Of a DNA stretch of 64,000 nucleotides, positions 43,971 through 58,487 are shown piece by piece. The stretch spans positions 14,209 through 78,208 of IMG/VR virus record IMGVR_UViG_3300024264_000019. One strand, 5' to 3'. This DNA is from a virus. Within the stretch, counting starts at the first letter, position 1; each line of letters starts with the position of its first letter. The position numbers were made by a program, and so were the translations under genes. The notes beneath the pieces are model-generated. The model made no database searches and was not told where the DNA came from. It saw only the letters and a list, made by a program, of their open reading frames with translations.

Positions 43971-44237
43971 ATGTATTTATAGTATAGTGTTACCACATTT
44001 AAATTTCAATGGATATTTAAATGGTCTACATTTTATATGTACACGATTTTTTTTGAAAAAGCAATTGTAAACGTTAACTCTTGCGTGACTTTTTGAGAAA
44101 AACCACCCCCCTCGTTAAATAAGGGTGGCGGGGGGCTAAAAAATTCAAAAAACGGGGGTGGGATCGTGCAATAAAATAATTGAATCTTTTTTGCCTTTAT
44201 GCTTGCAATTCAATGGGCAAAGCCTTAGTTTATATAC

Positions 44238-44453
44238 ATGAACATTACTAAAGGATTAAAAGTCGGAAGCCTATATCATTCACGGGCAAATAATAAAGTC
44301 GTGCGTCTCGTTTCACTTGATCGCATTAAAGGTGGCTTGCAAGTTGCAACAATCAAGCATCACAAACAAGATCATTTGTTTGAATCGGAGGTTTACATCT
44401 CTGACTTAATCAAGGCAACTACTGAACAAGTCAAGGCTTACTTTAAAAGGTAA
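44238..44453 (+). CDS. Early hypothetical protein (leaderless)
   Basis: TTGCAA-17-TAGTTT-6-ATG. Confidence 0.75.
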   Translation: MNITKGLKVGSLYHSRANNKVVRLVSLDRIKGGLQVATIKHHKQDHLFESEVYISDLIKATTEQVKAYFKR

Positions 44454-44490
44454 GTCTTGACACGACAAACAATAAAAGCCATAATTAGGA

Positions 44491-44664
44491 ATGATTAAAA
44501 TAATAAGAAACCCAAACTTTGCCGAATGGCTCGACATTAAAGTATTCGACAAACTAATCGACAACGCCAAGACACAGGCGAAAGCTATGAAAATAGCCGA
44601 GCAAGTCAAAAGCAAAAACCCACATTTTCAAATTGTAACAATAGAGGAAAAGACAAATGCGTAA
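44491..44664 (+). CDS. 57-aa ORF not in the track (MIKIIRNPNFAEWLDIKVFDKLIDNAK...)
   Basis: TTGACA-17-CATAAT-5-ATG; similar to 57533..57727. Confidence 0.75.
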   Translation: MIKIIRNPNFAEWLDIKVFDKLIDNAKTQAKAMKIAEQVKSKNPHFQIVTIEEKTNA

Positions 44665-44962
44665 AGTAACAGAGCAAATAAAGCAAGCCTTCAATCAAGG
44701 CTTATCTAAAAAAGTCGGCAACACAAGAACAGACGGCAATAGCGTTTTCTTGCATGGTAACGAGATAATAAAGCGTGATGCAAGCGGGCTTGTAATGGCT
44801 ACCCTTGCAGGGTGGAATACTCCCACAACAAGAGAAAGGATCAATGGCATAACAGGATTAGGCATTTATCAAAAGAACTTCGTTCCTATGTTAAACGGGC
44901 AAGAAGTTGATTCATACGATTGGCTAGTTCATACGACCAATACAGAGGAGGGTACAATATGA
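44657..44962 (+). CDS. Conserved-looking small phage early protein
   Basis: LHGNEI...GWNTPTTRERINGI motif; coupled to the upstream ORF. Confidence 0.7.
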   Translation: MRKVTEQIKQAFNQGLSKKVGNTRTDGNSVFLHGNEIIKRDASGLVMATLAGWNTPTTRERINGITGLGIYQKNFVPMLNGQEVDSYDWLVHTTNTEEGTI

Positions 44963-45023
44963 CTTGCATAATCCTCTTATCAGTTGCACTATACCTCTAT
45001 TCACTTTAATTAAAACGCTCTCC

Positions 45024-45094
45024 TAAGTCGCTGATAGTCAGGCACTTAGGCGGGCGGCTGCCGCCCTCGTAAGTGATTGGTAAACAACGACTTG
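45024..45094. repeat. Dyad element R1
   Basis: TAAGTCGCTGATAGTCAGGCACTTA-ggcgggc-GGCTGCC-gccctcg-TAAGTGATTGGTAAACAACGACTTG. Confidence 0.95.
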
Positions 45095-45210
45095 CGAAAG
45101 CCTTGTTCATAAACCATGCCAATTCACGCAGTATAATAATGCAATAAAATAACTGCAATATAATTGCGAATAAATTTGACTTTAGTTAAAAAAAGCCTTA
45201 GTTTATATAT

Positions 45211-45561
45211 ATGAAATCATTATACAACACAGACACAGAAGAATTCACTTTTAGCTTTATCATGTGCATTGAGGGTAAATCCTACCGAGTCGAGGCAGTA
45301 GCTTGTCAAGACGACATCCTGTTGAGCGATCAATATCGCCCCGAATACATTGACGCATACATGGCTAAATTGACAAACGAAAAAACAAACGAATTGACAG
45401 AGTCAAATGTCTACAAAAATACAGATCTTTTAAAGGTTGTAAGCGACAAACTTACAGAAAGGCTAATTACGAACGCGAGCAAAACTTGGTTTGTTACTGA
45501 TGCCCCAAGGCTTTTCCTTGAGCAATTCGATACTCGCCTAGAAATAATGTTTAATAAATAA
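45211..45561 (+). CDS. Early hypothetical protein (leaderless)
   Basis: TTGACT-17-TAGTTT-6-ATG. Confidence 0.75.
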   Translation: MKSLYNTDTEEFTFSFIMCIEGKSYRVEAVACQDDILLSDQYRPEYIDAYMAKLTNEKTNELTESNVYKNTDLLKVVSDKLTERLITNASKTWFVTDAPRLFLEQFDTRLEIMFNK

Positions 45562-45608
45562 CCACAAATAAATTTGACTTTAGTTAAAAAATAAACGATA
45601 GTATAAGT

Positions 45609-45824
45609 ATGACAGAAAGAGAAATAAAATCAAAAATTAGAGACTTAAAGAATCGATTAGATGCCGACCATTATGAAAGAGGCGTCGGGTTTGTACCTGC
45701 TAAGGGTTCAACTCGCGAATGGATCTTATCTAGCTTAGAAACCTTCGAGAAGATGTTGCCAAGAGCAAAGCATGACGACCAAGTAGCTCTTTATGGTTGG
45801 AGATCAGTCGAAAGAAACGCTTAA
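45609..45824 (+). CDS. Early hypothetical protein
   Basis: TTGACT begins 35 nt before the ATG. Confidence 0.7.
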   Translation: MTEREIKSKIRDLKNRLDADHYERGVGFVPAKGSTREWILSSLETFEKMLPRAKHDDQVALYGWRSVERNA

Positions 45825-45843
45825 ACCACTTAAACCAAAAATC

Positions 45844-46044
45844 ATGACAGACACACTAAAGCAAGAAAAAAGAAGGCTTCAAGCCATCATTGACAACAAT
45901 AACAACGAAGCAGAAAATGGATCTGCTTCGGCTCAAATGCAAGTAATATCTGCACAGGCGGATCTTGACAGAATCGCACAGAGTGAGCTTGCTCAGTATA
46001 TAGCAAGCACGCCTTTACCTAAACCTTTAATCTTAGTAGACTAA
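45844..46044 (+). CDS. Early hypothetical protein
   Basis: Start moved to MTDTLKQEK. Confidence 0.6.
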   Translation: MTDTLKQEKRRLQAIIDNNNNEAENGSASAQMQVISAQADLDRIAQSELAQYIASTPLPKPLILVD

Positions 46045-46047
46045 GCC

Positions 46048-46221
46048 ATGCAGTACATAAAAGAAACAATCAACAAACTAAATCAACAAATTAAAGCTTT
46101 AAATCACGAAAGGGTTAAAGCTGTAAGATTGGGCAATAATAAGAAGGCTTCGGACATTGAAATCATACAAATAGAATTAGACAATAAAATAACACAATTA
46201 GAGGGTTTAGCACATCGATAA
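46048..46221 (+). CDS. 57-aa coiled-coil ORF not in the track (MQYIKETINKLNQQ...)
   Basis: Translated by hand; fills the gap before R2. Confidence 0.6.
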   Translation: MQYIKETINKLNQQIKALNHERVKAVRLGNNKKASDIEIIQIELDNKITQLEGLAHR

Positions 46222-46231
46222 AGCCCTTCCC

Positions 46232-46302
46232 TAAGTTACTGATAATCAGGCACTTACGGGATCGGCTGCCGCCCTCGTAAGTGCTTGGTAAACAACGACT
46301 TA
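46232..46302. repeat. Dyad element R2
   Basis: TAAGTTACTGATAATCAGGCACTTA-7-GGCTGCC-7-TAAGTGCTTGGTAAACAACGACTTA. Confidence 0.95.
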
Positions 46303-46443
46303 CGAAACACCTGTTCACATACCATGCCAATTACCACACCTAAAAAGATGACCTATCCTACTAGCAGAATAGGGCAAAAACATAGTTGAAAGGTAATTCG
46401 CTATTGATTTGACTTCAATAGGCTTAGCCTTTACATTGTATTT

Positions 46444-46599
46444 ATGGAAATTAAAATTAAATCTCTCTCTACTTGGGCTAATGTCGTTTTTGAATTATAT
46501 ATCGGAAACAATTATTCAGGATCATTTGATTCTTTCAAGGAAGCCCAAAGCTACGGGCTTAAACTGACAAACTCTTTTCTTTTACTAGAAAATAAGTAA
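46444..46599 (+). CDS. 51-aa ORF not in the track (MEIKIKSLSTWANVVFELY...)
   Basis: TTGACT-17-TACATT-6-ATG. Confidence 0.7.
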   Translation: MEIKIKSLSTWANVVFELYIGNNYSGSFDSFKEAQSYGLKLTNSFLLLENK

Positions 46600-46642
46600 A
46601 AAATAATTCGCAATTAATTAAAACATAGTTTACTTTATATAT

Positions 46643-46900
46643 ATGGAAGATAATAATCAAGATCGGATATCAATTGGTGATGTCATAGACAATAACGCAT
46701 ATAAGAATGAAAAAGCTTATAATTTGACAAGGGCTCTTCTAGATATTGCTATTCTTGCAAGAGCTGTAAAGCATACAGCAAGCGAAGATATTAGAGGGAA
46801 TGGAATGGTGGCAATTGACAATGTCAATGATTGGATGACCGAAATCAATAACATTGCAAATAAAGCCGTTAAAAAAGAAATGTTAACAGAAAAACTATAA
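46643..46900 (+). CDS. Early hypothetical protein
   Basis: TCGCAA-17-TACTTT-6-ATG. Confidence 0.7.
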   Translation: MEDNNQDRISIGDVIDNNAYKNEKAYNLTRALLDIAILARAVKHTASEDIRGNGMVAIDNVNDWMTEINNIANKAVKKEMLTEKL

Positions 46901-46912
46901 GGAAATATAATT

Positions 46913-47254
46913 ATGGAAAATTTAGATGCAGCTTTTGAACTTTACGAAATTGACGAAGAAACTTTGACTTGTTCTTACTCGGATGATGACGGATCTTATA
47001 TCGAGTTGACTTGCTCCTTATGGACTGATGAAATTGACAACCTTTGGGGTGATCAAGTTTCATCTGTTTCCTTAATTGGTTACTTTGACAAAGTTGAACA
47101 AGTTGAATCCTTTGATGTAAATGGTAAAAAAGTTGACTTTGTTAAGCTTGACGAAGTTGAAAGAGTCAAAAAAATACTCGAAAATGAAGAATTTGAACTT
47201 GAAGAAACCTCTTGCAAAGTTGACTATTCCCCTCGCTACTATGATCTAGTATAA
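46913..47254 (+). CDS. Highly acidic early protein (possible DNA mimic)
   Basis: SD AAGGA; very D/E-rich 113 aa; the mimic role is speculative. Confidence 0.6.
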   Translation: MENLDAAFELYEIDEETLTCSYSDDDGSYIELTCSLWTDEIDNLWGDQVSSVSLIGYFDKVEQVESFDVNGKKVDFVKLDEVERVKKILENEEFELEETSCKVDYSPRYYDLV

Positions 47255-47275
47255 TAGTAGAATAAGTCACCTTCC

Positions 47276-47346
47276 TAAGTTACTGATAGTCAGGCACTTA
47301 GCGAGGCGGCTGCCGCTTCTGTAAGTGCCTAACAGCCAACGACTTA
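47276..47346. repeat. Dyad element R3
   Basis: TAAGTTACTGATAGTCAGGCACTTA-7-GGCTGCC-7-TAAGTGCCTAACAGCCAACGACTTA. Confidence 0.95.
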
Positions 47347-47518
47347 CAGATCGATGGAATAAGTTAGGAAAAAAGTGTTATAATACGCGAAGCAAAAATC
47401 GTATTTTTATACTTTTTTATATGTATTTGTCTATTTACTATTTATACTATTTACTATTAAGTGAAAAAGTTTTTCAATTCTATTTGACTTCTATTAATAT
47501 ATGTATTAGTTTTATAAT

Positions 47519-47665
47519 ATGATAAATAAGAAAATTGAAAAATTCATTCAAGACAATGATCTTGTTCGTGTTCTAGCTAGTCCAATGTCCGAGACCTTTG
47601 ATCTCTGGGAATGCCCAGGCGGTCATGTTTGGACTTTTGAGATGATCGAGCAAGCAATAAAATAA
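47519..47665 (+). CDS. 48-aa ORF not in the track (MINKKIEKFIQDNDLVRV...WECPGGHVW)
   Basis: TTGACT-17-TAGTTT-6-ATG. Confidence 0.7.
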   Translation: MINKKIEKFIQDNDLVRVLASPMSETFDLWECPGGHVWTFEMIEQAIK

Positions 47666-47713
47666 TTGCGAATAAATTTGACGCAACTTAAAAAATAGAT
47701 TACCTTTATATAT

Positions 47714-47929
47714 ATGACAGAAAAAAATGATTCACTTACTCGCCTTGCTCACGCCACTGGAATGACCGACATAGAATTTGAGGAACGCTCTCGAATTCAA
47801 TCTGAACTTGCCCATCAACAAGTTGTCCGCCAGTGGGAGGAGGATCAGGAGGCTGACCGCCAAGCTCTAAAGGGGTTTTCGGAGAATGAGGATGTTGATT
47901 GGGGTTATCATGACCAACTAGAGTTTTAA
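47714..47929 (+). CDS. Acidic early hypothetical protein
   Basis: TTGACG-17-TACCTT-7-ATG. Confidence 0.7.
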   Translation: MTEKNDSLTRLAHATGMTDIEFEERSRIQSELAHQQVVRQWEEDQEADRQALKGFSENEDVDWGYHDQLEF

Positions 47930-47931
47930 TG

Positions 47932-48003
47932 TAAACTCTTTATAATCAGCCACTTAGGTGGTTGGCTGCCGCCCGCCCTAAGTGCTTGATACTCAAAGAC
48001 TTA
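47932..48003. repeat. Dyad element R4 (end of the plus-strand arm)
   Basis: TAAACTCTTTATAATCAGCCACTTA-7-GGCTGCC-8-TAAGTGCTTGATACTCAAAGACTTA. Confidence 0.93.
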
Positions 48004-48141
48004 AAGCGGGGGTTTTACCAATAACAACTACTTCACATAAAGATATAATAAAAAAGCCAAAAAGATTATTTCAATCATTCTTCTTTCAAATCCTCCCACA
48101 TTAAGTAAAAAACAAAAAGCCAAGGTGAAAACAATACTAAT

Positions 48142-48405
48142 TCAAGAATCATTATAAATGCCTTTCATTTGGTCAGAGATGCCCATGTCTTCATCTTCTT
48201 CGTCAATATCTTCTGCTGAATCAGTAAAGAGAAACTGAGATTCGTCAGCAAGATCTTCTTTTTGAGCATCTAGCAAACCATGCTCGGTTACTACTTGCTC
48301 TGTTTTAATCTCTGCAATAAATTCCTCTATGGGCTGAGATGGCGTTATGGATTTTGAGTTTTCGACTGCTTTAGCGATAACTGCGATTCTTTGTTCTTCT
48401 GTCAT
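48142..48405 (-). CDS. Acidic early hypothetical protein
   Basis: TTGACT-17-TATATT-6-ATG. Confidence 0.7.
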   Translation of the reverse strand: MTEEQRIAVIAKAVENSKSITPSQPIEEFIAEIKTEQVVTEHGLLDAQKEDLADESQFLFTDSAEDIDEEDEDMGISDQMKGIYNDS

Positions 48406-48429
48406 AATAGTAATATAGTTTAGTTGTGA

Positions 48430-48792
48430 TTAGTAGTCAAGTCCTAATTCTTTGTTGTGATCCGCTTGAGTCTTTCTTAATAAATCAACCCATGTAAATC
48501 CATTAAGTTGGGCATCTCTCATGTGTTTGCTAATTTGAACAGGAGATTGCCAACCAAGAACATCGCCACATACTGCAAGAGGAATATCCACATCTTTGAA
48601 AGTCATTAAAACTTCAAACTCCTTATCGTCAACATGACCATAAAGACCATGACCATCTCCTGAATTAGCGATCACAGAAATCATAAAGTCGCCAAACTTT
48701 AATTGAGCGATGACTTTCTCTGTGCCTGTTCCTTCGTACATTGTAATAAAAGCAAGGTTATCGAAGTCGAGTAATTGTTGTTTTGTTGTCAT
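48430..48792 (-). CDS. Early hypothetical protein
   Basis: TTGACA-17-TACATT-6-ATG. Confidence 0.75.
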   Translation of the reverse strand: MTTKQQLLDFDNLAFITMYEGTGTEKVIAQLKFGDFMISVIANSGDGHGLYGHVDDKEFEVLMTFKDVDIPLAVCGDVLGWQSPVQISKHMRDAQLNGFTWVDLLRKTQADHNKELGLDY

Positions 48793-48847
48793 AAGTATAA
48801 TGTAATCTAGTTTAATTGTCTTGTCAAATAAAAAGAATAAATTTTCA

Positions 48848-49054
48848 CTAGAATTTTAATGCTTGTAATCGAGTGTTTTTCTTTAACCATCTGCGCAACG
48901 GATGAAATGCTCTAGCACTAAGGTGGGCTAAATACTGCTGTCCATTCTTGGCAAGAATCATATGACCGCTTGCTGTCTCACGAACCTCTTGGATATCAGG
49001 ACATTTCCGTAATTGTTTTAACACTTTGCGAGTTCCACTTTCTGAATGTTTCAT
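48848..49054 (-). CDS. Basic early protein, weakly HicA-like
   Basis: TTGACA-18-TATATT-6-ATG; RETASGHMILAKNG motif. Confidence 0.6.
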   Translation of the reverse strand: MKHSESGTRKVLKQLRKCPDIQEVRETASGHMILAKNGQQYLAHLSARAFHPLRRWLKKNTRLQALKF

Positions 49055-49129
49055 AATACTAATATAATCTTGTTAGGTGGTGCTTGTCAAATAAAAAGAA
49101 TAAAAAAAGAAAGAATTAAAACGCTTACG

Positions 49130-49201
49130 CAAGTACGTGAATAACAACCACTTACATCGGCGGCAGCGGCGGCACCTAAGTGCCTGACAATCAAAGACTT
49201 A
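49130..49201. repeat. Dyad element R5
   Basis: CAAGTACGTGAATAACAACCACTTA-7-GGCAGCG-8-TAAGTGCCTGACAATCAAAGACTTA. Confidence 0.9.
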
Positions 49202-49405
49202 GTAGCCTAACCATTCAAGAACTTTTTGGGCTGAGTATCCGTCTTGATCGCCCATGTCCTCAAAAAATTTGCAAATTTCTTCGTTTGATGTGACCCCGTG
49301 TTGCTCTAACTCTTTCAATGCCCTATCTTGCGAAATATCAACGGCATAAGCTGAGTCAAAATAATCGTTTCCAATTTCTGTTCTAATTTCAATTTTTTCA
49401 CTCAT
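49199..49405 (-). CDS. Hypothetical protein
   Basis: Coupled to the upstream gene; its stop codon is the outer TAA of R5. Confidence 0.7.
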   Translation of the reverse strand: MSEKIEIRTEIGNDYFDSAYAVDISQDRALKELEQHGVTSNEEICKFFEDMGDQDGYSAQKVLEWLGY

Positions 49406-50139
49406 GAATTTTCTCCTTCTACTACAAACCCTGTTTCGTCTTTCTTGGCAAGACCTTTTTCGATAAGACCAACAACAACACCTTTCTTGTCAAGAAATCG
49501 CAAGTCAGTTTCATCACCATTGACGACCTCAAAACCTTTCCATGTTTTGGGTAATTGATTGCGAAATACAACGGCAACATTGCCACCCATTAAAAGAACC
49601 ATTTCGCACTTTTTATCGTTATTCTCTGAGCGAGAAAAAGTCAAATGATAATTAGAGGGAAACTTTGCCTCGCCCTTGATAAAAGGCTTGCCAAGGAAAG
49701 AACACATTCTCTTGAATGACTTGGTATAATCGTAAAATTGAGTGGATGAATGTTTTTCTAGAATGGTCACACCATCCTCATTGATCTCATTTTCCCACAT
49801 GATATCACTTGTAAGATTAGGGCGAAATACAGCTTGCATACTTTTCTTTTGTGCTGACTTAATTGAAGAAGTAATTTCTTTGGATAGTTTTTCAAAAAAC
49901 TCGATTTTCTTCTCGAAGAACAATTTTGTTTTGTTGATTCGTGAATCTTGAACAGATCCCATTTGCCCACGACCTGCCGTATTCAAGCAAGAAATAGTGC
50001 AACCTTTGGAACGCCATTGGCAAGTTTCGTAGCCCGAAAGATTTGCTGGGGCAAGGTGAATGCCTTTTGTGATGTAACCTAATTTCTCGCCTTTGAGAAT
50101 TTTTTGATTACCTGATGTGAGAAGTGTTGTTTTAATCAT
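49402..50139 (-). CDS. Gp88-family phage protein
   Basis: LAPA..SG..C....GC...CLNTAGRG, QFYDYTK, NYHLTFSRSE, GDETDLRFLD; start moved to 50139 by TTGCTA-17-TACTAT-6-ATG. Confidence 0.75.
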   Translation of the reverse strand: MIKTTLLTSGNQKILKGEKLGYITKGIHLAPANLSGYETCQWRSKGCTISCLNTAGRGQMGSVQDSRINKTKLFFEKKIEFFEKLSKEITSSIKSAQKKSMQAVFRPNLTSDIMWENEINEDGVTILEKHSSTQFYDYTKSFKRMCSFLGKPFIKGEAKFPSNYHLTFSRSENNDKKCEMVLLMGGNVAVVFRNQLPKTWKGFEVVNGDETDLRFLDKKGVVVGLIEKGLAKKDETGFVVEGENS

Positions 50140-50202
50140 AAGTACATAGTAAGCCACTTTTTTGATTATAGCAAGAAAAAAGTTTAATTAATTTTACATT
50201 TT

Positions 50203-50273
50203 TAAATCGTTGAAGATCAGTCACTTACGATTTCGGCTGCCACCTTCATAAGTCGTTAACTTACAAAGGTTTA
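50203..50273. repeat. Dyad element R6
   Basis: TAAATCGTTGAAGATCAGTCACTTA-7-GGCTGCC-7-TAAGTCGTTAACTTACAAAGGTTTA. Confidence 0.9.
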
Positions 50274-50277
50274 AGGT

Positions 50278-50505
50278 CTACTCTTCCATCATCCACTCTT
50301 CAAGAGCATGCACGTCAAGATCTTCGTCTTTATAGCTTGCCCCGTCAGGGGTAGCTGTAGCACCGCAAGCCTCTAACTCGTCCGCTAGGTCAGCGTACCT
50401 AGCAAACCTGCGAGCTATCTTATACAAGCCCTCATCGTTGCCTAACCATAGTGCGACATTCCAAGTCGCCCAATTCTTCCATCCGTTGTATGTTGTATCT
50501 GTCAT
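50278..50505 (-). CDS. Small phage protein with a YNGWxNxxTWNVALW motif
   Basis: Motif familiar from small phage early proteins; SD AAGGA. Confidence 0.75.
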   Translation of the reverse strand: MTDTTYNGWKNWATWNVALWLGNDEGLYKIARRFARYADLADELEACGATATPDGASYKDEDLDVHALEEWMMEE

Positions 50506-50509
50506 AGTC

Positions 50510-50704
50510 TTATCCTTGTGTTAATAATTGTTTGAATTGATCGTAAACTTTTTGTTTTCCGCCCTTGAGTCCGAATTGTTCTTTGATAAGCGAGTAACAG
50601 CTTCTGCCTCTGCAAAGTCTCATACCCCTAAGTTCTGCTTCTAATCCTTTAAGGAGGGTGCGTTGTCTGAATGCTTCGATTGATGTTGGTGTCGTTAGTA
50701 TCAT
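50510..50704 (-). CDS. Early hypothetical protein
   Basis: Start moved to 50704: TTGACA-17-TATATT-7-ATG. Confidence 0.7.
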   Translation of the reverse strand: MILTTPTSIEAFRQRTLLKGLEAELRGMRLCRGRSCYSLIKEQFGLKGGKQKVYDQFKQLLTQG

Positions 50705-50748
50705 AATATATAATATAGTTGAGTTGTTTTTGTTTGTCAATTAATTTC

Positions 50749-50949
50749 TTAACAAAGTCTAAAAATAAAATCTTCGAAGTAATCAGGTTCAAGAGCAAAC
50801 TCTTGAACAAAATCACTTTCCCAAGAAAAAGGATCTCCGCCTTCTTTTATATCTAATTGCATTGACTTAAAAAAATCGACAACTTGTTTGACCGCCTCGG
50901 TTTTACTTAAACCATCGCGGGACATTAAGACTTTTACTGTTTCGTTCAT
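50749..50949 (-). CDS. Early hypothetical protein
   Basis: TTGTGT-17-TAATGT-6-ATG. Confidence 0.7.
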   Translation of the reverse strand: MNETVKVLMSRDGLSKTEAVKQVVDFFKSMQLDIKEGGDPFSWESDFVQEFALEPDYFEDFIFRLC

Positions 50950-51011
50950 AAGTATACATTACTGCAAAAAACAAATAAACACAAGAAAAAAGTGAATTAA
51001 AATTACAATTT

Positions 51012-51083
51012 TAAACGCTTGATAATCAATGACTTAAGCTAATTGGCAGCCGCTTTCGCAAGTGCTTGATAATCAAAGTTTTG
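51012..51083. repeat. Dyad element R7 (all four half-sites match WATCARN4TTR)
   Basis: TAAACGCTTGATAATCAATGACTTA-8-GGCAGCC-7-CAAGTGCTTGATAATCAAAGTTTTG. Confidence 0.95.
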
Positions 51084-51102
51084 TGAATGACTAAATTAAA
51101 CC

Positions 51103-51130
51103 AAAAAAACTCCCCCCAATTGGGGGGAGC
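51103..51130 (-). terminator. Intrinsic terminator after the DUF932-like gene
   Basis: ctcccccc-aatt-ggggggag hairpin with a T-tract on the minus strand. Confidence 0.85.
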
Positions 51131-51152
51131 AAACTAAACAATAATCTAGTAT

Positions 51153-52025
51153 TTAAACCTCTACTAGTTCGCCTTCAACAACTTCCATGTCAAGAGTATT
51201 CTCTACATGATCTTCGATATTAAAATCAATCTCTGCATCAAGAACAGAATGAAGAGCGTCAGAACGATTTGGCAAGGCGATTAAATTACCTTTGTAAATT
51301 TCGGTGAAAGCGTTGTAAAGAGAATTCATATTGCGATCTTTAAATTCTACATGATCGCTTGATTCCCATTGGTTGACTACATCAATAATTTTTGACTTTG
51401 GTAAAGCACCTGCCTTGCAAGCCCTTATGACAAGATCATTGACTTGAGAGTTGCTAAGATCGAAATCTTTATAAGCGTTAACACGATTGTCTTGACCATG
51501 CCAAAACCCAAACAATTTGCCTAACGCACGACCAATCATAAAATCAAGATCGTTAAGAATATTGCGAGTGTGACGACGAGCGAGTTTAATCGTATTAGTG
51601 AAGATCAAATTATCGCAAACAAATGGAGCGTCACCTGCACAAAGTCCCGCAGGAAAGGTTTTGTCGTGAGAGTTACGAACCCCTACAACGCATCCGCGAT
51701 CAGTCGCAACACGATTTGGGTGATCCACGGCAAATAATCCAAAATAATGTTGATCACCTCTAGCGAGAGAATGAACCTCTTCTTGAATAGTAAAACCCTT
51801 TTGGGTTAATGAATCTCTAGTACGAACGATAAGTTCGTCATGACCAATAGGTTGATGAGAAACAGCTAACTCACCTGTTCTTTTGTTAGGCTTGCTACGC
51901 ATGGTTGCTAATGGAGTTGGTACGGCTTGCACTTTGTCAAATTTTACTAGAGTGCGATTACCTCCACAAATGTTTAAATTTACAGATTTGCGAGGAGCGT
52001 TGTTGTTGTTTTCTTCGTTGTTCAT
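51153..52025 (-). CDS. DUF932 family protein
   Basis: HQPIGH, GVRNSHDKT...FVCDNL, SLYNAFTE motifs. Confidence 0.75.
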   Translation of the reverse strand: MNNEENNNNAPRKSVNLNICGGNRTLVKFDKVQAVPTPLATMRSKPNKRTGELAVSHQPIGHDELIVRTRDSLTQKGFTIQEEVHSLARGDQHYFGLFAVDHPNRVATDRGCVVGVRNSHDKTFPAGLCAGDAPFVCDNLIFTNTIKLARRHTRNILNDLDFMIGRALGKLFGFWHGQDNRVNAYKDFDLSNSQVNDLVIRACKAGALPKSKIIDVVNQWESSDHVEFKDRNMNSLYNAFTEIYKGNLIALPNRSDALHSVLDAEIDFNIEDHVENTLDMEVVEGELVEV

Positions 52026-52063
52026 AATAGTAATAATATAGTTTTAATGGTTTTTGTCAATAG

Positions 52064-52303
52064 TTAATTTCTGATATATGGACTTTCTTTGTATTCTTCA
52101 GATTGAATTTTTTCATAAGCACCTGCTTGCTCAGCAATCATTTTGAAAGAAACCTCAATGATACTAATCAAGGCTAAATCTTCTTCGTCAAGTTTTCCTT
52201 TCATTGGGTCAATAAGTTTTTCAAAAATAAAATTCATACCTTCATTCATCACATTCTCAGGGCTTAAATCTTCGTTTTCTTGATAATTAGAGTTGATATT
52301 CAT
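52064..52303 (-). CDS. Hypothetical protein
   Basis: ORF track; fits the local operon. Confidence 0.65.
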   Translation of the reverse strand: MNINSNYQENEDLSPENVMNEGMNFIFEKLIDPMKGKLDEEDLALISIIEVSFKMIAEQAGAYEKIQSEEYKESPYIRN

Positions 52304-52412
52304 ATTTTTTTTTGTGTTTAAGTTTTCTGTCTAGAGTTTTGTTTTTCATTTTAAAAGGTCGAGCCTTGGTAAAAAGAACTTTGTGCCTCATCTTTATCTC
52401 TCTTGCTTTCAT
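52287..52412 (-). CDS. 41-aa basic ORF not in the track (MKAREIKMRHKVLFTKARPFKMKNKTLDRKLKHKKKYEYQL), ArfA-like motif
   Basis: TTGCTA-17-TACTAT-6-ATG; LF...RKxKH pattern. Confidence 0.65.
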   Translation of the reverse strand: MKAREIKMRHKVLFTKARPFKMKNKTLDRKLKHKKKYEYQL

Positions 52413-52474
52413 ATATACATAGTAAGCTAATTTTTAATTTATAGCAAGAAAAAAGTAAAATTAAATTCATTTCG

Positions 52475-52546
52475 TAAATTGTTGTCTATCAGGGACTTAA
52501 GTTGCGCGGCAGCCAACCACGCAAGTGGTTGACTATCAGTGGCTTA
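52475..52546. repeat. Dyad element R8
   Basis: TAAATTGTTGTCTATCAGGGACTTA-8-GGCAGCC-7-CAAGTGGTTGACTATCAGTGGCTTA. Confidence 0.93.
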
Positions 52547-52705
52547 CGACCTGTTGTATAATTTCCTCAACATAGACTCGTGTAGAGATTTTTTACTCAT
52601 ATAATCCTCCGAGGTGTCCCCTCTTGACTCTCTAGCAGCAAGCATGTGACCGAACCTTCTTAGACTTTCTTGGAGTGTTTGTTTGTTTTTAATTTTCTTT
52701 TTCAT
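52544..52705 (-). CDS. Basic hypothetical protein
   Basis: Start moved to MKKKIKNK; its stop codon is the outer TAA of R8. Confidence 0.65.
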   Translation of the reverse strand: MKKKIKNKQTLQESLRRFGHMLAARESRGDTSEDYMSKKSLHESMLRKLYNRS

Positions 52706-52707
52706 AA

Positions 52708-52941
52708 TTATACTCTGTTTAGGGATATGATTTGGTCGTATCTGAATGAGCGAATGCCAGACTTGTTGTGGCAAAAACTCCTAAATCCGACTACTGATTT
52801 ACCCTCTATCATATTTCCGAATTCATTTTCGTGTCGAGGTTTTGTGATTGTGTACATTTCTGTTCTACCATCTTTAGTCGTGTAGACGACTTGGTATAAC
52901 GGATTAAACCAATGGTAAATTTTCACTAATAGTTTCTTCAT
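52708..52941 (-). CDS. Small protein, possibly WYL/SH3-like
   Basis: VVYTTKDG...FCHNKSGIRSFRYDQI resembles the WYL R.FR.DRI motif. Confidence 0.5.
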   Translation of the reverse strand: MKKLLVKIYHWFNPLYQVVYTTKDGRTEMYTITKPRHENEFGNMIEGKSVVGFRSFCHNKSGIRSFRYDQIISLNRV

Positions 52942-53185
52942 TTTTAGTTTCCTCTGTTACAGGGTTTTGGTTGTAATAGTTATATAACTCGCAAGCTTCT
53001 TCTGCTGAGTCGCAACTATAAGAAATTAAATCGGGGAAATTAATATTCTCCCTAAAAGCTTCGTCGTATGGATGGTATGAAGTTTTGGACTCTTCAAACC
53101 ACAAGCTCCATTGTTCTAATTGTTCATTGTAGTCGGGTAAGTCTAGTGGTCTGCCAATGCAGGTTGCTTCTATGTAATTGTTCAT
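52904..53185 (-). CDS. Acidic hypothetical protein
   Basis: TTGACA begins 35 nt before the ATG. Confidence 0.65.
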   Translation of the reverse strand: MNNYIEATCIGRPLDLPDYNEQLEQWSLWFEESKTSYHPYDEAFRENINFPDLISYSCDSAEEACELYNYYNQNPVTEETKNEETISENLPLV

Positions 53186-53216
53186 GATTTTAATTATGTA
53201 GTGTTACGGTGTTATG

Positions 53217-53402
53217 TCAAGAAATAAAAACATAAATCGGATCTTTAAACTCTGAGTTGAACGCTCCAACCTCATCCCATCCGTAAAGAATAAGAGCTTG
53301 ATCATAGTCGTCTTTGTAGAAGTCGCTTCTCTCTATCACGGCAAGGTATTGTCCTTGAGGAATTATGTTTTCGTTTTTTAAATTTATCTCTGTCATTTTC
53401 AT
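53217..53402 (-). CDS. Hypothetical protein
   Basis: ORF track; packed in an operon. Confidence 0.55.
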   Translation of the reverse strand: MKMTEINLKNENIIPQGQYLAVIERSDFYKDDYDQALILYGWDEVGAFNSEFKDPIYVFIS

Positions 53403-53403
53403 C

Positions 53404-53625
53404 TTAGCAAGGGATTGGTGAGTCTTCGTCTGTATGAATAGTTACGCAAAAATGATTCGCAAGCTCCTTAATCATTACATCGTTATTGAAATAATTATAT
53501 GCGTGAGTTAAAAGTTGCTCTTGCTCTTCTCCAGTATGCCCATCTCTGAGCTCGTCATATATCTCGAAGATGTTCATGTTCCAGTTCCATCCTTCTACTC
53601 TTGATTCTATCTGTGATTTTGTCAT
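53404..53625 (-). CDS. Hypothetical protein
   Basis: SD AAGGA. Confidence 0.65.
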   Translation of the reverse strand: MTKSQIESRVEGWNWNMNIFEIYDELRDGHTGEEQEQLLTHAYNYFNNDVMIKELANHFCVTIHTDEDSPIPC

Positions 53626-53639
53626 GTTGTTCCTTGTGT

Positions 53640-53873
53640 TTATAGTTGTGCTGATTGAAAAGATGATTCTATTCTGAGCTCATTTTGCAATGAGGTCAAG
53701 CTTAAAACAATATCTTCTAAAACTTCTTCTGCGGACTGAAAAGTACTACCAAGTGGAAACTTTTCAGGGTGGCGTTCATGTTGCTCTAGGCATACTTTTG
53801 ACATTGGATCGGCATATGCCATTTCCCCTCTAACTATGTCTAGAATGGTTTCTCTTATCTTTGATTGTGTCAT
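53640..53873 (-). CDS. Early hypothetical protein
   Basis: Start moved to 53873: TTGCTA-17-TATTGT-6-ATG. Confidence 0.7.
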   Translation of the reverse strand: MTQSKIRETILDIVRGEMAYADPMSKVCLEQHERHPEKFPLGSTFQSAEEVLEDIVLSLTSLQNELRIESSFQSAQL

Positions 53874-53935
53874 ACTAATACAATACCCCAACCCTTTAAT
53901 TATAGCAAGAAAAAAGTTGAGTTTTTTTACATTCC

Positions 53936-54007
53936 TAAATCTTTGTTAATCAAAGACTTAAGTGTGGCGGCAGCCAGCCGCATAAGTGACTGGTATTCAA
54001 GGGTTTA
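53936..54007. repeat. Dyad element R9
   Basis: TAAATCTTTGTTAATCAAAGACTTA-8-GGCAGCC-7-TAAGTGACTGGTATTCAAGGGTTTA. Confidence 0.93.
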
Positions 54008-54181
54008 CTTTAATTGCTTTGTTCTTTCATTTTGGTCGTCTACGATCTTTGCAAGTTTTAGCAATTCACAGGTGGCATTTTGCTTATCCGCATTTCCAGC
54101 TTTTGGACTCTTCAACACTTCCGTTAATATTCTAACGACTGCTGACCATTTTGGTGTGATGTCTATTGTTTGTTCTTCCAT
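54005..54181 (-). CDS. 58-aa ORF not in the track (MEEQTIDITPKWSAVVRIL...)
   Basis: TTGACT-17-TAGTTT-6-ATG; its stop codon is the outer TAA of R9. Confidence 0.75.
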   Translation of the reverse strand: MEEQTIDITPKWSAVVRILTEVLKSPKAGNADKQNATCELLKLAKIVDDQNERTKQLK

Positions 54182-54212
54182 AATATAAAACTATACTAAA
54201 TTAATAATTGAG

Positions 54213-54386
54213 TCAAGACATTTCTTCTTCATCGAGAACTTTTTCTTGCAACTCTTGTAGTGATTGATATGTGATGTACCACGAATCTGTCGGATCCACC
54301 TCGCCCTCCATTTCGCTATACTGAATATAGTCGAGGACTTCTTGGATGCATTGTGATACGGGAACTTTAACTAACAATTGTTTCAT
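54213..54386 (-). CDS. 57-aa ORF not in the track (MKQLLVKVPVSQCIQEVLDY...)
   Basis: TTGACA-17-TAGTTT-6-ATG. Confidence 0.7.
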   Translation of the reverse strand: MKQLLVKVPVSQCIQEVLDYIQYSEMEGEVDPTDSWYITYQSLQELQEKVLDEEEMS

Positions 54387-54400
54387 AATATAAAACTAAA

Positions 54401-54604
54401 CTATCTTAGCGTGACTGTCAACTCATTTTGCATTTTTTTCTCTTTAACTAAATCCTCAAGAGCGAAAGTAATTGAGTGAAGGTTTTCGTTAATGTTCTTC
54501 ATTACCTTGACGAGATCCTCCATGTTTGCGTGTCTGCGGTGTTCTAGTATCTCATCGCTGAGTCCGTCAATGGCGGTTTTAATTGCATATAATTCTTCTT
54601 TCAT
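54401..54604 (-). CDS. Coiled-coil hypothetical protein
   Basis: ORF track; coupled to the upstream stop. Confidence 0.6.
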   Translation of the reverse strand: MKEELYAIKTAIDGLSDEILEHRRHANMEDLVKVMKNINENLHSITFALEDLVKEKKMQNELTVTLR

Positions 54605-54802
54605 TTAACTATACTTTACTCCTTCTAATTCTGATTCCAACCATAATATGGCTTTTTCTCTTATGTCGCTGTGCGAAACTTCTGTGAATACATTGTCATT
54701 GACTCGAAGATAAAGATCGTTTCCGTTCTTTTTCTCTGTCTCTAGGTCGTTTTCTTTATACCACTTTTGGGCATAATCTATCATTCTTTGTTCGTGGCTC
54801 AT
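54605..54802 (-). CDS. Hypothetical protein
   Basis: SD GAGG. Confidence 0.65.
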   Translation of the reverse strand: MSHEQRMIDYAQKWYKENDLETEKKNGNDLYLRVNDNVFTEVSHSDIREKAILWLESELEGVKYS

Positions 54803-54904
54803 TTTAATCCTCGCTGTTTATGTAAGCATTGTATAGTTTTAATAAATCTGCATCAGATCCATGTTCAATGATGCTCATTAGGTAGTCAACAATTTCTTCT
54901 TTGT

Positions 54905-55306
54905 TCATGGTATATAGGCGGTTACTTGGTTGTGTGATAATAAAACTTCATCTGCATAGTATACAAACTTCTCGGTGTTCTTGTCAACAAAAGTTTCATA
55001 CTTGTATGGATTATATGTTACCTCAGTTGCGGGTCTGTCGGTGTTGACATTCTCGGCATCCTGAAGATAACCCTTGACAAAAGCATGAACATTCTTCTTC
55101 TTGTCACGAAGAACTTTTTCTCTGAGCTTGATATTAACATGAAAGTAGCAATCCCACAAACCAATAGAATGATCCTTTGGAATGTGAGCCTTAACTAATC
55201 CGTGTTGCCTGACTGACCAGCAGTCCTTGTGAAGATTCTTGTATACATAGACAGGTCGATTAGACTTTATAATGTATCTTGGGTCTTGTTGGTTTCTCTT
55301 AATCAT
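54905..55306 (-). CDS. Conserved-looking phage protein (YKNLH...KNVHAFV...YNPYK family)
   Basis: TTGTGT-17-TAGTAT-6-ATG; motif familiar from phage hypothetical proteins. Confidence 0.75.
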   Translation of the reverse strand: MIKRNQQDPRYIIKSNRPVYVYKNLHKDCWSVRQHGLVKAHIPKDHSIGLWDCYFHVNIKLREKVLRDKKKNVHAFVKGYLQDAENVNTDRPATEVTYNPYKYETFVDKNTEKFVYYADEVLLSHNQVTAYIP

Positions 55307-55368
55307 ATATACATACTAAGACACTTTCTTAATTAACACAAGAAAAAAGTTAAATAATTTTAATTTTT

Positions 55369-55440
55369 TAAGTCATTGATGATTAACGACTTAAGTGTAG
55401 CGGCAGCCGACCCCGCAAGTGTTTGTTAATCAGTGACTTA
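55369..55440. repeat. Dyad element R10
   Basis: TAAGTCATTGATGATTAACGACTTA-8-GGCAGCC-7-CAAGTGTTTGTTAATCAGTGACTTA. Confidence 0.95.
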
Positions 55441-55479
55441 CGGCGGTAAGAGGATTGTGCAATAATTGAATTGTGCAAC

Positions 55480-55509
55480 AAAAAAACCCCACCTATTACG
55501 GGTGAGGCT
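55480..55509 (-). terminator. Probable intrinsic terminator
   Basis: ccccacc-tattacg-ggtgagg hairpin with a T-tract on the minus strand. Confidence 0.6.
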
Positions 55510-55657
55510 TAGATAATTACATTTTAAATTTATATTATTTATTTCATGTTATATTTATTTTATATTTATTCTCCTTCTATAAACATCTTTATTCCTAATG
55601 TAATAGCTAATATTATTATTAGTATTGGATCCATATATTATTTATACTTGTTTATTC

Positions 55658-55912
55658 TTACTCTGCAATTGCAAAAACCTCCTTAAGTTTTTTTACGGTC
55701 TCTGAACGAAGGAAGACACTGCGTACGTAATCAATGTCTCTATCCTCTACATGTTTAATGCGGTCAGCACAAAGGTGAGCGGCTATTGATTCTCTTGGCA
55801 AGCCTCCCCATTGGATCACCACTTGAGTATGCGGGAAGTGCTCTACGAGCTCTTTAATTTGATTTGAGTCTATGTACCCAAATTGCGATAGTATGTCTTT
55901 TATTGTTTTCAT
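55658..55912 (-). CDS. Early hypothetical protein
   Basis: TTGACT-17-TATGAT-6-ATG. Confidence 0.75.
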   Translation of the reverse strand: MKTIKDILSQFGYIDSNQIKELVEHFPHTQVVIQWGGLPRESIAAHLCADRIKHVEDRDIDYVRSVFLRSETVKKLKEVFAIAE

Positions 55913-56015
55913 GATGTTATCATAAGTTGTTTTTTGGGAGAAGTCAATAAAAAACCCCCTTACAAGGTAAGCGATTAATCGCAGTCTTGCAAGAGGGTTA
56001 GGGATGGGGAGAAAA

Positions 56016-56285
56016 TGGTGTGGGGAGGGATTACTGTATACCCTCGACTTTTCGGGATGAACATCAGTTCATGGTGTACCTACTTCGCACCACAAATTAG
56101 ACATGGTATTTGTCATCGGCTCATTCGATTGAACTCTACCGCCCCACCACAGGGAATTTGCGTACTTTAGCCCGCTCATCACAGGCTTACTCAGTCACCC
56201 ACAGGAAGGATTATAAGCCCTTCCAAATTGGAATGACCCCCACGAGTTCCACGATCAACAACAATCCACTCCACTCGCAGGGGTC
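56016..56285 (-). ncRNA. Candidate structured non-coding RNA with a tRNA-like CCA 3' end (family unknown)
   Basis: GC-rich island with at least 6 hairpins whose G-U pairs form only on the minus strand; ends GAGGG-N11-CCCUC-CCCACA-CCA; upstream sigma70 promoter has no ATG at +1. Confidence 0.6.
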
Positions 56286-56405
56286 AAAAATTAACTATTA
56301 AAGAACAAAAATTTTGGATTATTTTATTTATTTGAGTTTGATCCTTCTCAATTTTGATTATGTATATATAATACTACTTTATTTATTATATGTCAACTTT
56401 ATTTT

Positions 56406-56780
56406 TCAATTATCTAAAAAAGTTTTATATCTATATCTTACTTGATTACCTTTATATTCCCATACAAGATTAAACTTATCGGCAATTTCTTTTATTACAT
56501 CAATAAATTTTTTACTATTAGTTGTCCACCTCACTACCTTTGGTGAAGTTGAAGGTTTCTTATTAAGAGGAGCAACGAGGACTAATCCTGTCCCACCATT
56601 ATTTCCGTCCCATTGTTTTGATAAAATGGTCATTTGCTTGCAAGCCCAATTCACATCGGTTGCTTGGAAGAAGACTTGATATTTCATGTCTAAATTTATT
56701 GCTTTTATTTCTGCTATTTGCTTGAACGGATTAGCTAATAAAGAAATAGAAGAAAATAATAGTATAATTAAAAATTTCAT
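56406..56780 (-). CDS. Secreted hypothetical protein (signal peptide)
   Basis: MKFLIILLFSSISLLA-NP. Confidence 0.65.
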   Translation of the reverse strand: MKFLIILLFSSISLLANPFKQIAEIKAINLDMKYQVFFQATDVNWACKQMTILSKQWDGNNGGTGLVLVAPLNKKPSTSPKVVRWTTNSKKFIDVIKEIADKFNLVWEYKGNQVRYRYKTFLDN

Positions 56781-57035
56781 TATTTATTTAGCGTCACAGA
56801 GGAAGCAAGGTCCGTGCCCAGGCTTTGGGCAACTATGTGAGTATTCATCCACCTCAACTAAGCAATGTTTACAACTACTGATGAATAAAAATAAGCTAAT
56901 TAATATGTATTTAATCATGTTAGAATATAATTTTAAGGGTTAATGAAAATATGTCCCAATAACTTAAAGAATTAAAAAGAACAATTAAAGAAGTAGGAAA
57001 TATAATACAAGATATAATTAAAAATTTCATAATAA

Positions 57036-57275
57036 TTATTTATTTAATTGGCGAAGTTCTTTTAATAAGTCTTTTATTTTATTATAACTATCTTTGGGCG
57101 GAAACATATCATTTGTTTGTGGATATAGTATTGATCCGTATAAATCTTCTAGAAACTCTTCTGCTTTAACTAATTTAATTAAAGAAATTTCTTTTGGAGT
57201 TAATTGGTCGTATAACTCTTCGTTGGTTGCAAACATACTAACCTTGTCGTTAATTGGTTTAATTGAGGTACTCAT
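57036..57275 (-). CDS. Hypothetical protein
   Basis: Coupled to the upstream ORF. Confidence 0.6.
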   Translation of the reverse strand: MSTSIKPINDKVSMFATNEELYDQLTPKEISLIKLVKAEEFLEDLYGSILYPQTNDMFPPKDSYNKIKDLLKELRQLNK

Positions 57276-57472
57276 TACGCACCCACTTTCTTTAATCTTA
57301 ATAGTCTTTGAGCTTTAATCTCCATCAACCTACGATCTGCTTCTCGTTGTTGGGCTACAATACCCTCAGTAGCTTCGCTATACCCCTTAAACCTGTGGCT
57401 AAAGGCAAAAGGGTTGTTACCCCTTACTTTATTCATTACTTCTGTTGCTCGTGCGTCTCTCGCTATACTCAT
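57275..57472 (-). CDS. Basic hypothetical protein
   Basis: SD AAGGAG. Confidence 0.65.
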   Translation of the reverse strand: MSIARDARATEVMNKVRGNNPFAFSHRFKGYSEATEGIVAQQREADRRLMEIKAQRLLRLKKVGA

Positions 57473-57532
57473 AATTATTTTTCTCCTTGTTTTAGTGTTA
57501 TGATTGTAGACTAGCAGTTAACATTCTTGATG

Positions 57533-57727
57533 TCAAACCTTTTTTAATAAAATAGTTCTTTGCGTATTAATTTTCATAATTTCTATGTCGAATTGTTTTT
57601 GCGCTCTAGCGATTCGCGATGCTTTTCTTATTGCTAATGCCTCTCCTCGAAATTCGTCAACGAGTTTGCCGAAATTTAAAACTTGAAAAAATTCTTTAAA
57701 ATTACAATTTTGTTTTATTTGTATCAT
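57533..57727 (-). CDS. Hypothetical protein, probable paralog of 44491..44664
   Basis: Shared pattern MI.I..N.NF.E......F.KL.D.....A.A. Confidence 0.65.
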   Translation of the reverse strand: MIQIKQNCNFKEFFQVLNFGKLVDEFRGEALAIRKASRIARAQKQFDIEIMKINTQRTILLKKV

Positions 57728-57729
57728 AT

Positions 57730-58068
57730 TTAATTTAATTCTATATTATTTGGCTGATTATTATTTAGATTATTATTTATCTCCATATCAGCACATATCT
57801 TATCTTGTATTAAATCATTAATGTAAAATTCATTGTTAAAAATATTTTTTATATTTAATCCGTTATTTGTTATTTGATTTAATTCGCTTTTTACTTCATT
57901 TATTAAACCCTCTATAATCTCAAAGGCTTCTTCTTTATTTGTCTTCTCTCCTGTTTCTATATTATTAAGGACTTGATCATCGTCCAAATCGTGATCCATG
58001 CGTTGCATTTCACTACGGATAAAAAGTATTTGATCTAATTTTTCGTTTACTTGCTTTGCTATATTCAT
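57730..58068 (-). CDS. Hypothetical protein
   Basis: SD AAGGA. Confidence 0.6.
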   Translation of the reverse strand: MNIAKQVNEKLDQILFIRSEMQRMDHDLDDDQVLNNIETGEKTNKEEAFEIIEGLINEVKSELNQITNNGLNIKNIFNNEFYINDLIQDKICADMEINNNLNNNQPNNIELN

Positions 58069-58195
58069 GTATGTATTTATTCCTTTTGTTGTTTCAATAT
58101 AATCTAAATAATTTTTTACACAATGTCAAGTATTATTTTATGTGTGTTTTATTTTACTAAAATTTTTGTTCAATTATTTGGGTGTATATATCAGT

Positions 58196-58396
58196 ATGAA
58201 TATGGAGATATATGATTATATTGTAAAAGACTTATTAAGCTCTAATGCTTTTTATTGGGTGAACGGAACTCCCGCAAAAAGATTAATGAGAATAAAGGAA
58301 TATGCTTGGCACAAATACCACAACATGGATGATGCTGATTTTGAAAGATTATATAAAAAAATAGAAATTAACAAAAAAAAAGATAATTATAAATAA
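58196..58396 (+). CDS. Hypothetical protein behind a GTGTA motif
   Basis: Start moved to 58196: GTGTA-N9-ATG. Confidence 0.55.
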   Translation: MNMEIYDYIVKDLLSSNAFYWVNGTPAKRLMRIKEYAWHKYHNMDDADFERLYKKIEINKKKDNYK

Positions 58397-58487
58397 TATG
58401 AATTTTCTAGAATTATGGGATGCGTTTTTATTAACGATTTTATTTGTTTCAATTATAATTATATTTTGTAATAAATGATTATTTAAA

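Follow-up and report, generated by a model that had tools for sequence, protein, structure and literature searches.

The closest described system to the locus considered here is that of the promoter-early stem-loops (PeSLs) of T4-type phages (PMC2839356, Arbiol et al. 2010; PMC4122927, Comeau et al. 2014), for which homologous recombination is the proposed mechanism (PMC4122927). Cluster A mycobacteriophages carry stoperators, which are single asymmetric 13-bp sites that occur genome-wide and are bound by the phage repressor (PMC9283540, PMC6550527). We analyzed a window of 64,000 nucleotides (nt), bases 14209 to 78208 of a 78,208-bp IMG/VR virus contig (IMGVR_UViG_3300024264_000019), in which an uncultured marine phage carries, among its early genes, ten copies of an element of 71 to 72 bp. 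Each copy consists of two 25-bp boxes on either side of a short core, and the gene order of related phages is broken preferentially at these elements. The reading that we favor, with roughly even confidence, is that the elements serve as boundary modules to which a DNA-bending dimer binds, possibly integration host factor (IHF) or HU of the host, and that they double as recombination joints like the PeSLs of T4.

A paired 25-bp box and its wider family

An earlier reading of the window, made from the sequence alone (the sequence-only reading), had placed ten copies in this region, each built of a 25-bp box, 7 to 8 nt, GGCWGCC, 7 to 8 nt, and a second box. Both the positions and the geometry were confirmed. 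Four copies are 71 bp long (R1, 45024 to 45094; R2, 46232 to 46302; R3, 47276 to 47346; R6, 50203 to 50273), and six are 72 bp long (R4, 47932 to 48003; R5, 49130 to 49201; R7, 51012 to 51083; R8, 52475 to 52546; R9, 53936 to 54007; R10, 55369 to 55440). R1 carries 7 nt on each side of GGCTGCC, the right half of R2 plus about 30 nt downstream is about 84% identical to R1, and the core of R5 is GGCAGCG. The same reading had seen no copy outside the array, and this held when the whole contig was scanned with a weight matrix of the box: exactly 20 boxes were recovered, all 20 in one cluster and every one within the ten elements. At three or fewer mismatches, the box pattern had 15 matches in the window, compared with 0.03 expected from 100 dinucleotide-preserving shuffles. 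The box consensus is TAAGT-NN-YTGAT-W-ATCAR-NN-ACTTA, and conservation falls on single positions, namely, A2, A3, T9, A17, T23, and T24 of each box and G34 and C38 of the core.

The element belongs to a much wider family. A hidden Markov model built from the ten copies recovered about 100 further copies in related IMG/VR contigs, and 79 distinct copies were analyzed, in which the six box positions are conserved at 99 to 100%. The exact 25-bp box pattern matches at least 119 IMG/VR stretches, where by our own estimate fewer than one chance match is expected. Four related genomes that were studied in detail hold 9 to 11 copies each, in a single cluster of about 10 kb, and a 206-kb contig rated complete likewise has one cluster only, at 25 to 33 kb. 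Other contigs supplied 574 boxes, in which these six positions show no variation beyond rounding, and the loci that were fetched range in GC content from 26% to 57%.

The boxes are always paired. Their start-to-start spacing is constant within a contig and variable between contigs, with values of 41, 42, 46/47 (this genome), 48, 49, 50 (the commonest), 52, 53, and 58 bp. The sequence-only reading had taken the gap of 21 to 22 bp between boxes to represent two helical turns; as a general rule this is not supported, since spacings that are fixed within related contigs but differ between them make the gap lineage specific rather than a universal phase. The spacer is always GC rich and its sequence is specific to the spacing class, so that the core of the module differs wholly between classes while the boxes are unchanged. 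In the 58-bp class (L227, L206, L238, and L244), the spacer contains a conserved GACCCC-NNN-GGGGTC hairpin with a variable loop.

The elements had no megablast or blastn match in cultured phages, and we found no account of the 25-bp box in Rfam or in the published literature searched. A scan of bacterial genomes with the core pattern gave, among the 120 matches listed, one site each and none with both boxes, and these were discarded as chance matches.

Sites on double-stranded DNA at transcription-unit borders

Several features of the element invite reading it as a hairpin that acts as a bidirectional terminator, an RNase III-type processing site, or an extruded cruciform. The whole element is near-palindromic and folds at about -23 kcal/mol, it is located at the 3' ends of genes and between convergent genes, and its GC core folds 1 to 8 kcal/mol better than shuffles in all spacing classes; moreover, a stem-loop is part of the PeSLs (PMC4122927). 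The variation among the 79 copies argues against this reading. For each pair in the whole element and within the boxes, the Watson-Crick fraction equaled the expectation from column composition, no pair exceeded a mutual information of 0.25, and about a third of the arm positions were mismatched, at the rate predicted by chance, so that no compensatory changes were seen; the better folding of the spacer likewise comes without register-fixed covariation. Mismatches compatible with G-U pairing were about as many on the sense strand (116) as on the antisense strand (120), with no strand asymmetry of G-U versus A-C mismatches, and the folding energies of the two strands were equal (-23.2 and -22.9 kcal/mol). 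The invariant bases are single positions rather than pairs, the element has no trailing T run, true hairpin-plus-T-run terminators adjoin some copies, and the elements matched no curated covariance model in an Rfam scan. The covariation and strand tests led us to reject an RNase III site, terminator, or cruciform, and we consider the hairpin reading as a whole very unlikely. Because there is no pairing constraint and the terminators are separate, the pattern of variation indicates that the element is read as double-stranded DNA. The proposal that the boxes are under selection as a protein site on double-stranded DNA is thus supported by the absence of both covariation and strand bias.

Every copy of the element is intergenic. 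Many copies begin between 2 nt before and 12 nt after the upstream stop codon, and some provide its TAA: R5 contains the stop codon of the open reading frame (ORF) at 49199-49405(-), and R8 and R9 provide those of the ORFs at 52544-52774(-) and 54005-54181(-), respectively. At convergent gene pairs, both stop codons adjoin the element. The small genes among which the elements lie form a two-armed block, with one arm on the plus strand from 44.2 to 47.9 kb, in which R1 lies, and the other on the minus strand from 48.1 to 55.3 kb, of which R10 is the outermost copy. The arms converge at R4, which begins 3 nt past the stop of the ORF at 47714-47929. From the end of the element to the next ATG, the commonest distance is 62 to 64 nt, which is found in most minus-arm copies. 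The element is also oriented, with the central W being T on the sense strand in 38 of 45 codirectional cases; R6 is the only copy in this phage genome with A at that position.

The interval between element and gene contains promoters of a distinctive kind. Nineteen of the 42 ORFs in the early block (44000 to 58800) are preceded by a TTGACA-like -35 hexamer, a spacer of 16 to 18 nt, and a TANNNT -10 hexamer that ends 5 to 8 nt (mostly 6) before the ATG, an arrangement found for only 3 of 29 ORFs in the structural region. Since the -10 hexamer ends so close to the start codon, the early mRNAs are expected to be leaderless. Shine-Dalgarno-like motifs are rare across the contig. The promoter half of one module, with its upstream A/T-rich stretch, lies at 55304 to 55368 on the minus strand (TTGTGT-N17-TAGTAT-N6-ATG of a gene resembling gp82 of mycobacteriophage L5; 63 nt), and equivalent promoter halves lie at 53871-53935, 52410-52474, 50947-51011, and 50140-50202. 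The commonest distances from the element to the -35 hexamer in three spacing classes are 6 to 7, 18 to 20, and 26 to 27 nt, based on too few confident promoters to be more than suggestive. The elements had been proposed to partition the early region into gene cassettes of about 1 kb. The elements themselves stand, but a layout with one promoter per block does not, because about 19 leaderless promoters for 10 elements mean that the blocks do not consist of one promoter and one gene set each. In two metatranscriptomes, the RNA contigs span small fragments of the region, too little to show where transcripts end.

Terminators are found on the opposite side of the element. Across the family, 10 of 73 copies have a GC stem with a T run at 25 to 50 nt on their upstream side and no copy (0/73) has one on its downstream side, and the stems of these upstream terminators vary between relatives with their pairing retained. 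A terminator scan of this genome gave clear GC-stem-plus-T-run matches adjoining R7 and R10, which are canonical intrinsic terminators on the minus strand: one at 51109 to 51130, with a 9-bp GC stem and a T run, between a 290-amino-acid (aa) gene and R7, and one at 55484 to 55510, about 45 nt upstream of R10. Within the elements, its sole match was a weak one with a short stem, in R5, and no match extended across an element. Taken together, the positions of terminators, elements, and promoters give a consistent order of stop codon, sometimes terminator, element, and promoter.

This placement also bears on whether the element might be a selfish one, similar to a miniature inverted-repeat transposable element with TAAGT...ACTTA termini, that spreads into TAA or TTA sites at gene ends without benefit to the phage. 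Its ends are indeed inverted repeats, it often provides the TAA stop, and one copy of this genome is missing in a relative between otherwise collinear genes. Against such spread, even the 206-kb genome has its copies in a single early cluster of about 10 kb, the copies stand in a fixed register with the promoter, and no transposase was seen. In addition, six positions are invariant in more than 500 boxes while others vary, which points to a sequence-specific function rather than to recent copying. We therefore regard a selfish origin as extremely improbable.

Gene-block order among relatives and the candidate binder

Gene families in five genomes form the same blocks, but the order of the blocks differs; the gp82-like block, for example, is first in three genomes and internal in one. 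When the genomes were compared, the adjacency of shared genes was broken at 83 of 152 junctions with an element versus 41 of 236 without one (odds ratio, 5.7), counts that use non-independent genome pairs. In one relative (G003) that lacks R9 and its promoter, the missing unit of about 145 nt corresponds to a 5-nt linker, the 72-nt element, and the 63-nt promoter, and the two genes flanking it overlap as ATGA. Contigs from other seawater samples join the blocks in different ways, with joints at element ends, promoters, and ATG codons. The sequence-only reading had offered shufflable cassettes analogous to PeSLs or to integron arrays and had suggested checking whether relatives that differ in gene content do so with breaks at the elements. 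Breakpoints are enriched there as reported above, and together with the exact element-plus-promoter indel, they agree with the PeSL-like version of that reading.

The integron-like version fared differently. A dedicated site-specific system, integron- or lox-like, with crossover at GGCWGCC and a recombinase of an unrecognized family, would account for inverted arms that flank a short core in which the lone asymmetric base W gives polarity. It would also account for the discrete gain or loss of one unit in one relative and for blocks relocated or reordered between relatives, some of them among blocks of opposite orientation, with breaks at elements. As the sequence-only reading had noted for the window, no recombinase was found: serine and tyrosine recombinase families (PF00239 and PF00589) are absent from five related records, including one rated complete. 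The limits of the indel unit, which takes in the 63-nt promoter, do not coincide with those of the element, the core differs wholly between spacing classes while the boxes are kept, and the halves of the elements do not follow the genes that flank them. Of the 42 early ORFs, 19 have a promoter of their own, and in other samples some joints lie at promoters and ATG codons where there is no element. An integron-like site-specific system is thus not supported, and a dedicated recombinase acting at the core seems to us highly improbable.

What appears to explain the shuffling best is homologous recombination between the repeated module and promoter sequences. Because similar sequence of 70 to 140 bp recurs about tenfold, the modules could also be joints for ordinary homologous recombination, through which gene blocks would have been moved, added, and removed among related phages in the manner of the T4 PeSLs. 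In the favored reading of the elements as protein-bound boundary modules, each one would be a pair of dyad-symmetric protein sites on double-stranded DNA whose distance is fixed by the GC-rich core, and a homodimeric DNA-bending protein, from the host or an unrecognized phage protein, would be centered on W. The module would mark the border of an early transcription unit, with a stop codon (at times a terminator), the element, an A/T-rich stretch, and a leaderless sigma-70-type promoter in succession, and we infer that bending of the DNA by the bound protein insulates or tunes the adjacent early promoters.

The case for a bending protein comes from the form of the box. Each box consists of two inverted WATCAR-N4-TTR words with a common W, and the reported match of R7 to this consensus at all four half-sites was verified. 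In this genome, 15 of 40 half-sites match the IHF consensus exactly, at about 62 times the density in the remaining contig; across the family, about 32% of half-sites match exactly and about 40% have one mismatch. Such a pattern would be expected for a homodimeric DNA-bending protein of the IHF/HU (DNABII) type centered on W, and the binder is possibly IHF or HU itself, to judge by the consensus match. From the IHF-H' structure, in which we take the proline kinks to be 9 bp apart, a W-centered DNABII dimer would presumably kink the DNA beside the invariant T9 and A17; this fit is a resemblance rather than a test.

A number of results weigh against this reading. With regard to the binder, conservation extends past the IHF consensus to G4, T5, A21, and C22, no member of the HU/IHF family (PF00216) was found in nine related records, among them the complete-rated 206-kb contig, and the host may lack IHF. 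Pfam, with no search aimed at repressors of the L5 gp71 type, detected no helix-turn-helix protein among the 85 ORFs of the contig and, among the matches listed for the 100 ORFs of a related genome (the 25 commonest of 54 families), no DNA-binding family. With regard to the architecture, spacings of 41 to 58 bp do not keep the two sites in any one helical phase, the plus arm of the phage genome has 118 to 173 nt to the next gene rather than 63, and the GC core, folding slightly better than shuffles in every spacing class, may have some hairpin role. With regard to recombination, the breakpoint counts carry the dependence between genome pairs, and the element halves do not follow flanking gene families (a test of left halves with upstream and right halves with downstream genes gave no usable signal); since the halves do not track the flanking genes, crossovers inside the element are not demonstrated.

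Some of these points would suit a phage-encoded dimeric regulator with a fold that Pfam does not recognize, for which the boxes would be operators that switch early transcription on or off or would block read-through as the stoperators of L5 do. The conserved G4, T5, A21, and C22 lie outside the IHF consensus, retention of the box at 26 to 57% GC fits a factor carried by the phage, and element polarity follows transcription in 84% of cases, as for stoperators (PMC9283540). Many small basic early proteins of no known family are also common to four or five of the compared relatives. Neither a relaxed Pfam scan of ten small proteins nor PDB-sequence profile searches of five conserved ones yielded a DNA-binding candidate, the latter giving one WYL-like match only. 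Phage operators usually drift with their repressor, whereas the box is nearly constant across the group, and the site lies at least 25 bp upstream of the -35 hexamer without overlapping the promoter. We judge a phage regulator of this kind to be unlikely, though worth weighing. The WYL-like match concerns a conserved 77-aa early protein at 52708-52941(-), which weakly resembles a WYL domain in the PDB profile search (8bnv C terminus, E = 0.004; PafBC).

A 66-aa acidic ORF at 50749 to 50949 on the minus strand, just downstream of R7, has homologues in several other box-bearing contigs. Its first 40 or so residues weakly resemble the N-terminal helical dimerization part of HU/IHF: the homologue in the related genome G002 matches PF00216 at an E value of 0.002, the PDB profile search gave HU at an E value of 0.11, and Foldseek aligned HU/IHF chains over 39 aa with a root mean square deviation of 1.8 to 2.2 and 26 to 33% identity, which is not significant. 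The AlphaFold2 model is a four-helix protein (pLDDT, 87) without DNA-binding beta arms. Because it keeps an HU/IHF-like dimerization module and lacks the arms, the protein could poison host DNABII dimers. Its link to the elements is speculative, and a scheme in which an IHF/HU-type protein of the host forms a boundary at each early unit and is then disabled by the 66-aa protein strikes us as improbable. If true, it would be a previously undescribed temporal switch, common to a large group of uncultured phages, in which a host architectural protein is hijacked and then disabled.

Phage setting and comparison with described systems

The contig belongs to a tailed phage without a close cultured relative. 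A 3,827-aa ORF at 9923-21406(-) carries a tape-measure domain (PF10145) at residues 112 to 314; at this length, the protein is unusually long even for the tape measure of a large siphovirus-type phage. The size of the ORF had raised the suspicion of a virion RNA polymerase and hence of N4-type hairpin promoters, which was dropped once the ORF proved to encode the tape measure protein. The terminase is 22 to 26% identical to those of Bacillus siphophages, and megablast against a cultured phage collection returned no match to a phage. The stretch is represented, at least in part, in runs from 19 studies, mostly labeled as seawater or marine metagenomes, and 17 of the runs contain at least a quarter of its sampled words. 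Searches with the terminase, PhoH, and gp82-like proteins for clues to the host gave distant and mixed matches only, and no psbA gene and no tRNA gene were found. The DNA of two other box-bearing loci matched only scraps of cultured phages.

The early block includes homologues of L5 gp82 and GP88, and in Bacillus phage phiNIT1, the gp82 homologue is located in the terminal redundancy. At the GP88-like (49142 to 50443) and L5-gp82-like (54350 to 55651) segments, contigs from other seawater samples reach 10 to 20 times the summed depth of their neighbors, and these two genes seem to be common to many more phages than the rest of the region. Beyond the outermost element, a manA RNA motif lies at 56015 to 56224 on the minus strand (Rfam RF01745; full length, 83.8 bits versus a gathering score of 55.2), and an RNA-library contig of depth 71 spans 56046 to 56171 within it; the Rfam scan otherwise gave one subthreshold match. 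Over the whole 78,208-bp contig, CCGG is absent (0 versus about 60 expected) and GGCC is depleted (25 versus about 89 expected), while GCGC, CGCG, and GCWGC are not depleted. This deficit looks like avoidance of particular restriction sites.

Overall, the borders of early genes in more than 100 uncultured phage contigs are marked by one 25-bp word, six of whose bases are essentially invariant, and the element can serve as a simple sequence marker when early (host-takeover) regions are sought in metagenomic phage contigs. Should it prove to be where a host bending protein docks, it would represent a common way for large phages to organize and time their first transcription.

Among described repeats, the bacterial interspersed mosaic elements (BIMEs) of Escherichia coli known as RIP and RIB are extragenic, stand at the 3' ends of transcription units, and consist of repetitive extragenic palindromic (REP) sequences flanking an IHF site. 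The modules described here are similar in being repeated at extragenic 3' ends and in combining GC-rich palindromes with IHF-type sites. They differ in that the IHF-type sites flank the GC core, no REP sequence is present, and the copies are phage borne in one cluster. Each half of the box matches WATCAR-N4-TTR, as do IHF (DNABII) sites such as H' of lambda attP; in contrast to the one-sided IHF sites of E. coli, the box is fully symmetric, with additional conservation of G4, T5, A21, and C22. The attC sites of integrons are likewise arrayed, imperfect inverted repeats at the 3' ends of cassettes. Here, there is no IntI-type integrase (PF00589 is absent from the five relatives), sequence rather than structure is conserved, and the cassettes have their own promoters (19 of 42 early ORFs).

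The stoperators of Cluster A mycobacteriophages (PMC9283540, PMC6550527) resemble the elements in their many copies, their location in short intergenic gaps and at gene ends, and their orientation with transcription, whereas the elements are paired, symmetric, and confined to one cluster. The likeness to PeSLs is closer. Both are short composites that recur between small early ORFs and consist of an element at a gene's 3' end and an early promoter after it; in both, the blocks by which relatives differ have been acquired, deleted, or exchanged at these modules; and homologous recombination between the repeats is the simplest mechanism of exchange. In contrast to PeSLs, the nonpromoter half here is a rigid pair of 25-bp palindromes with a GC core rather than a terminator stem-loop, it has no covariation, strand bias, or T run, and the promoters are predicted to give leaderless mRNAs. 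The phage itself is of the siphovirus type, as its long tape measure protein indicates, and has no sequence similarity to T4-type phages. The modules may thus extend the idea behind PeSLs, of regulatory repeats that double as recombination joints and shuffle accessory genes, to an unrelated group of phages.

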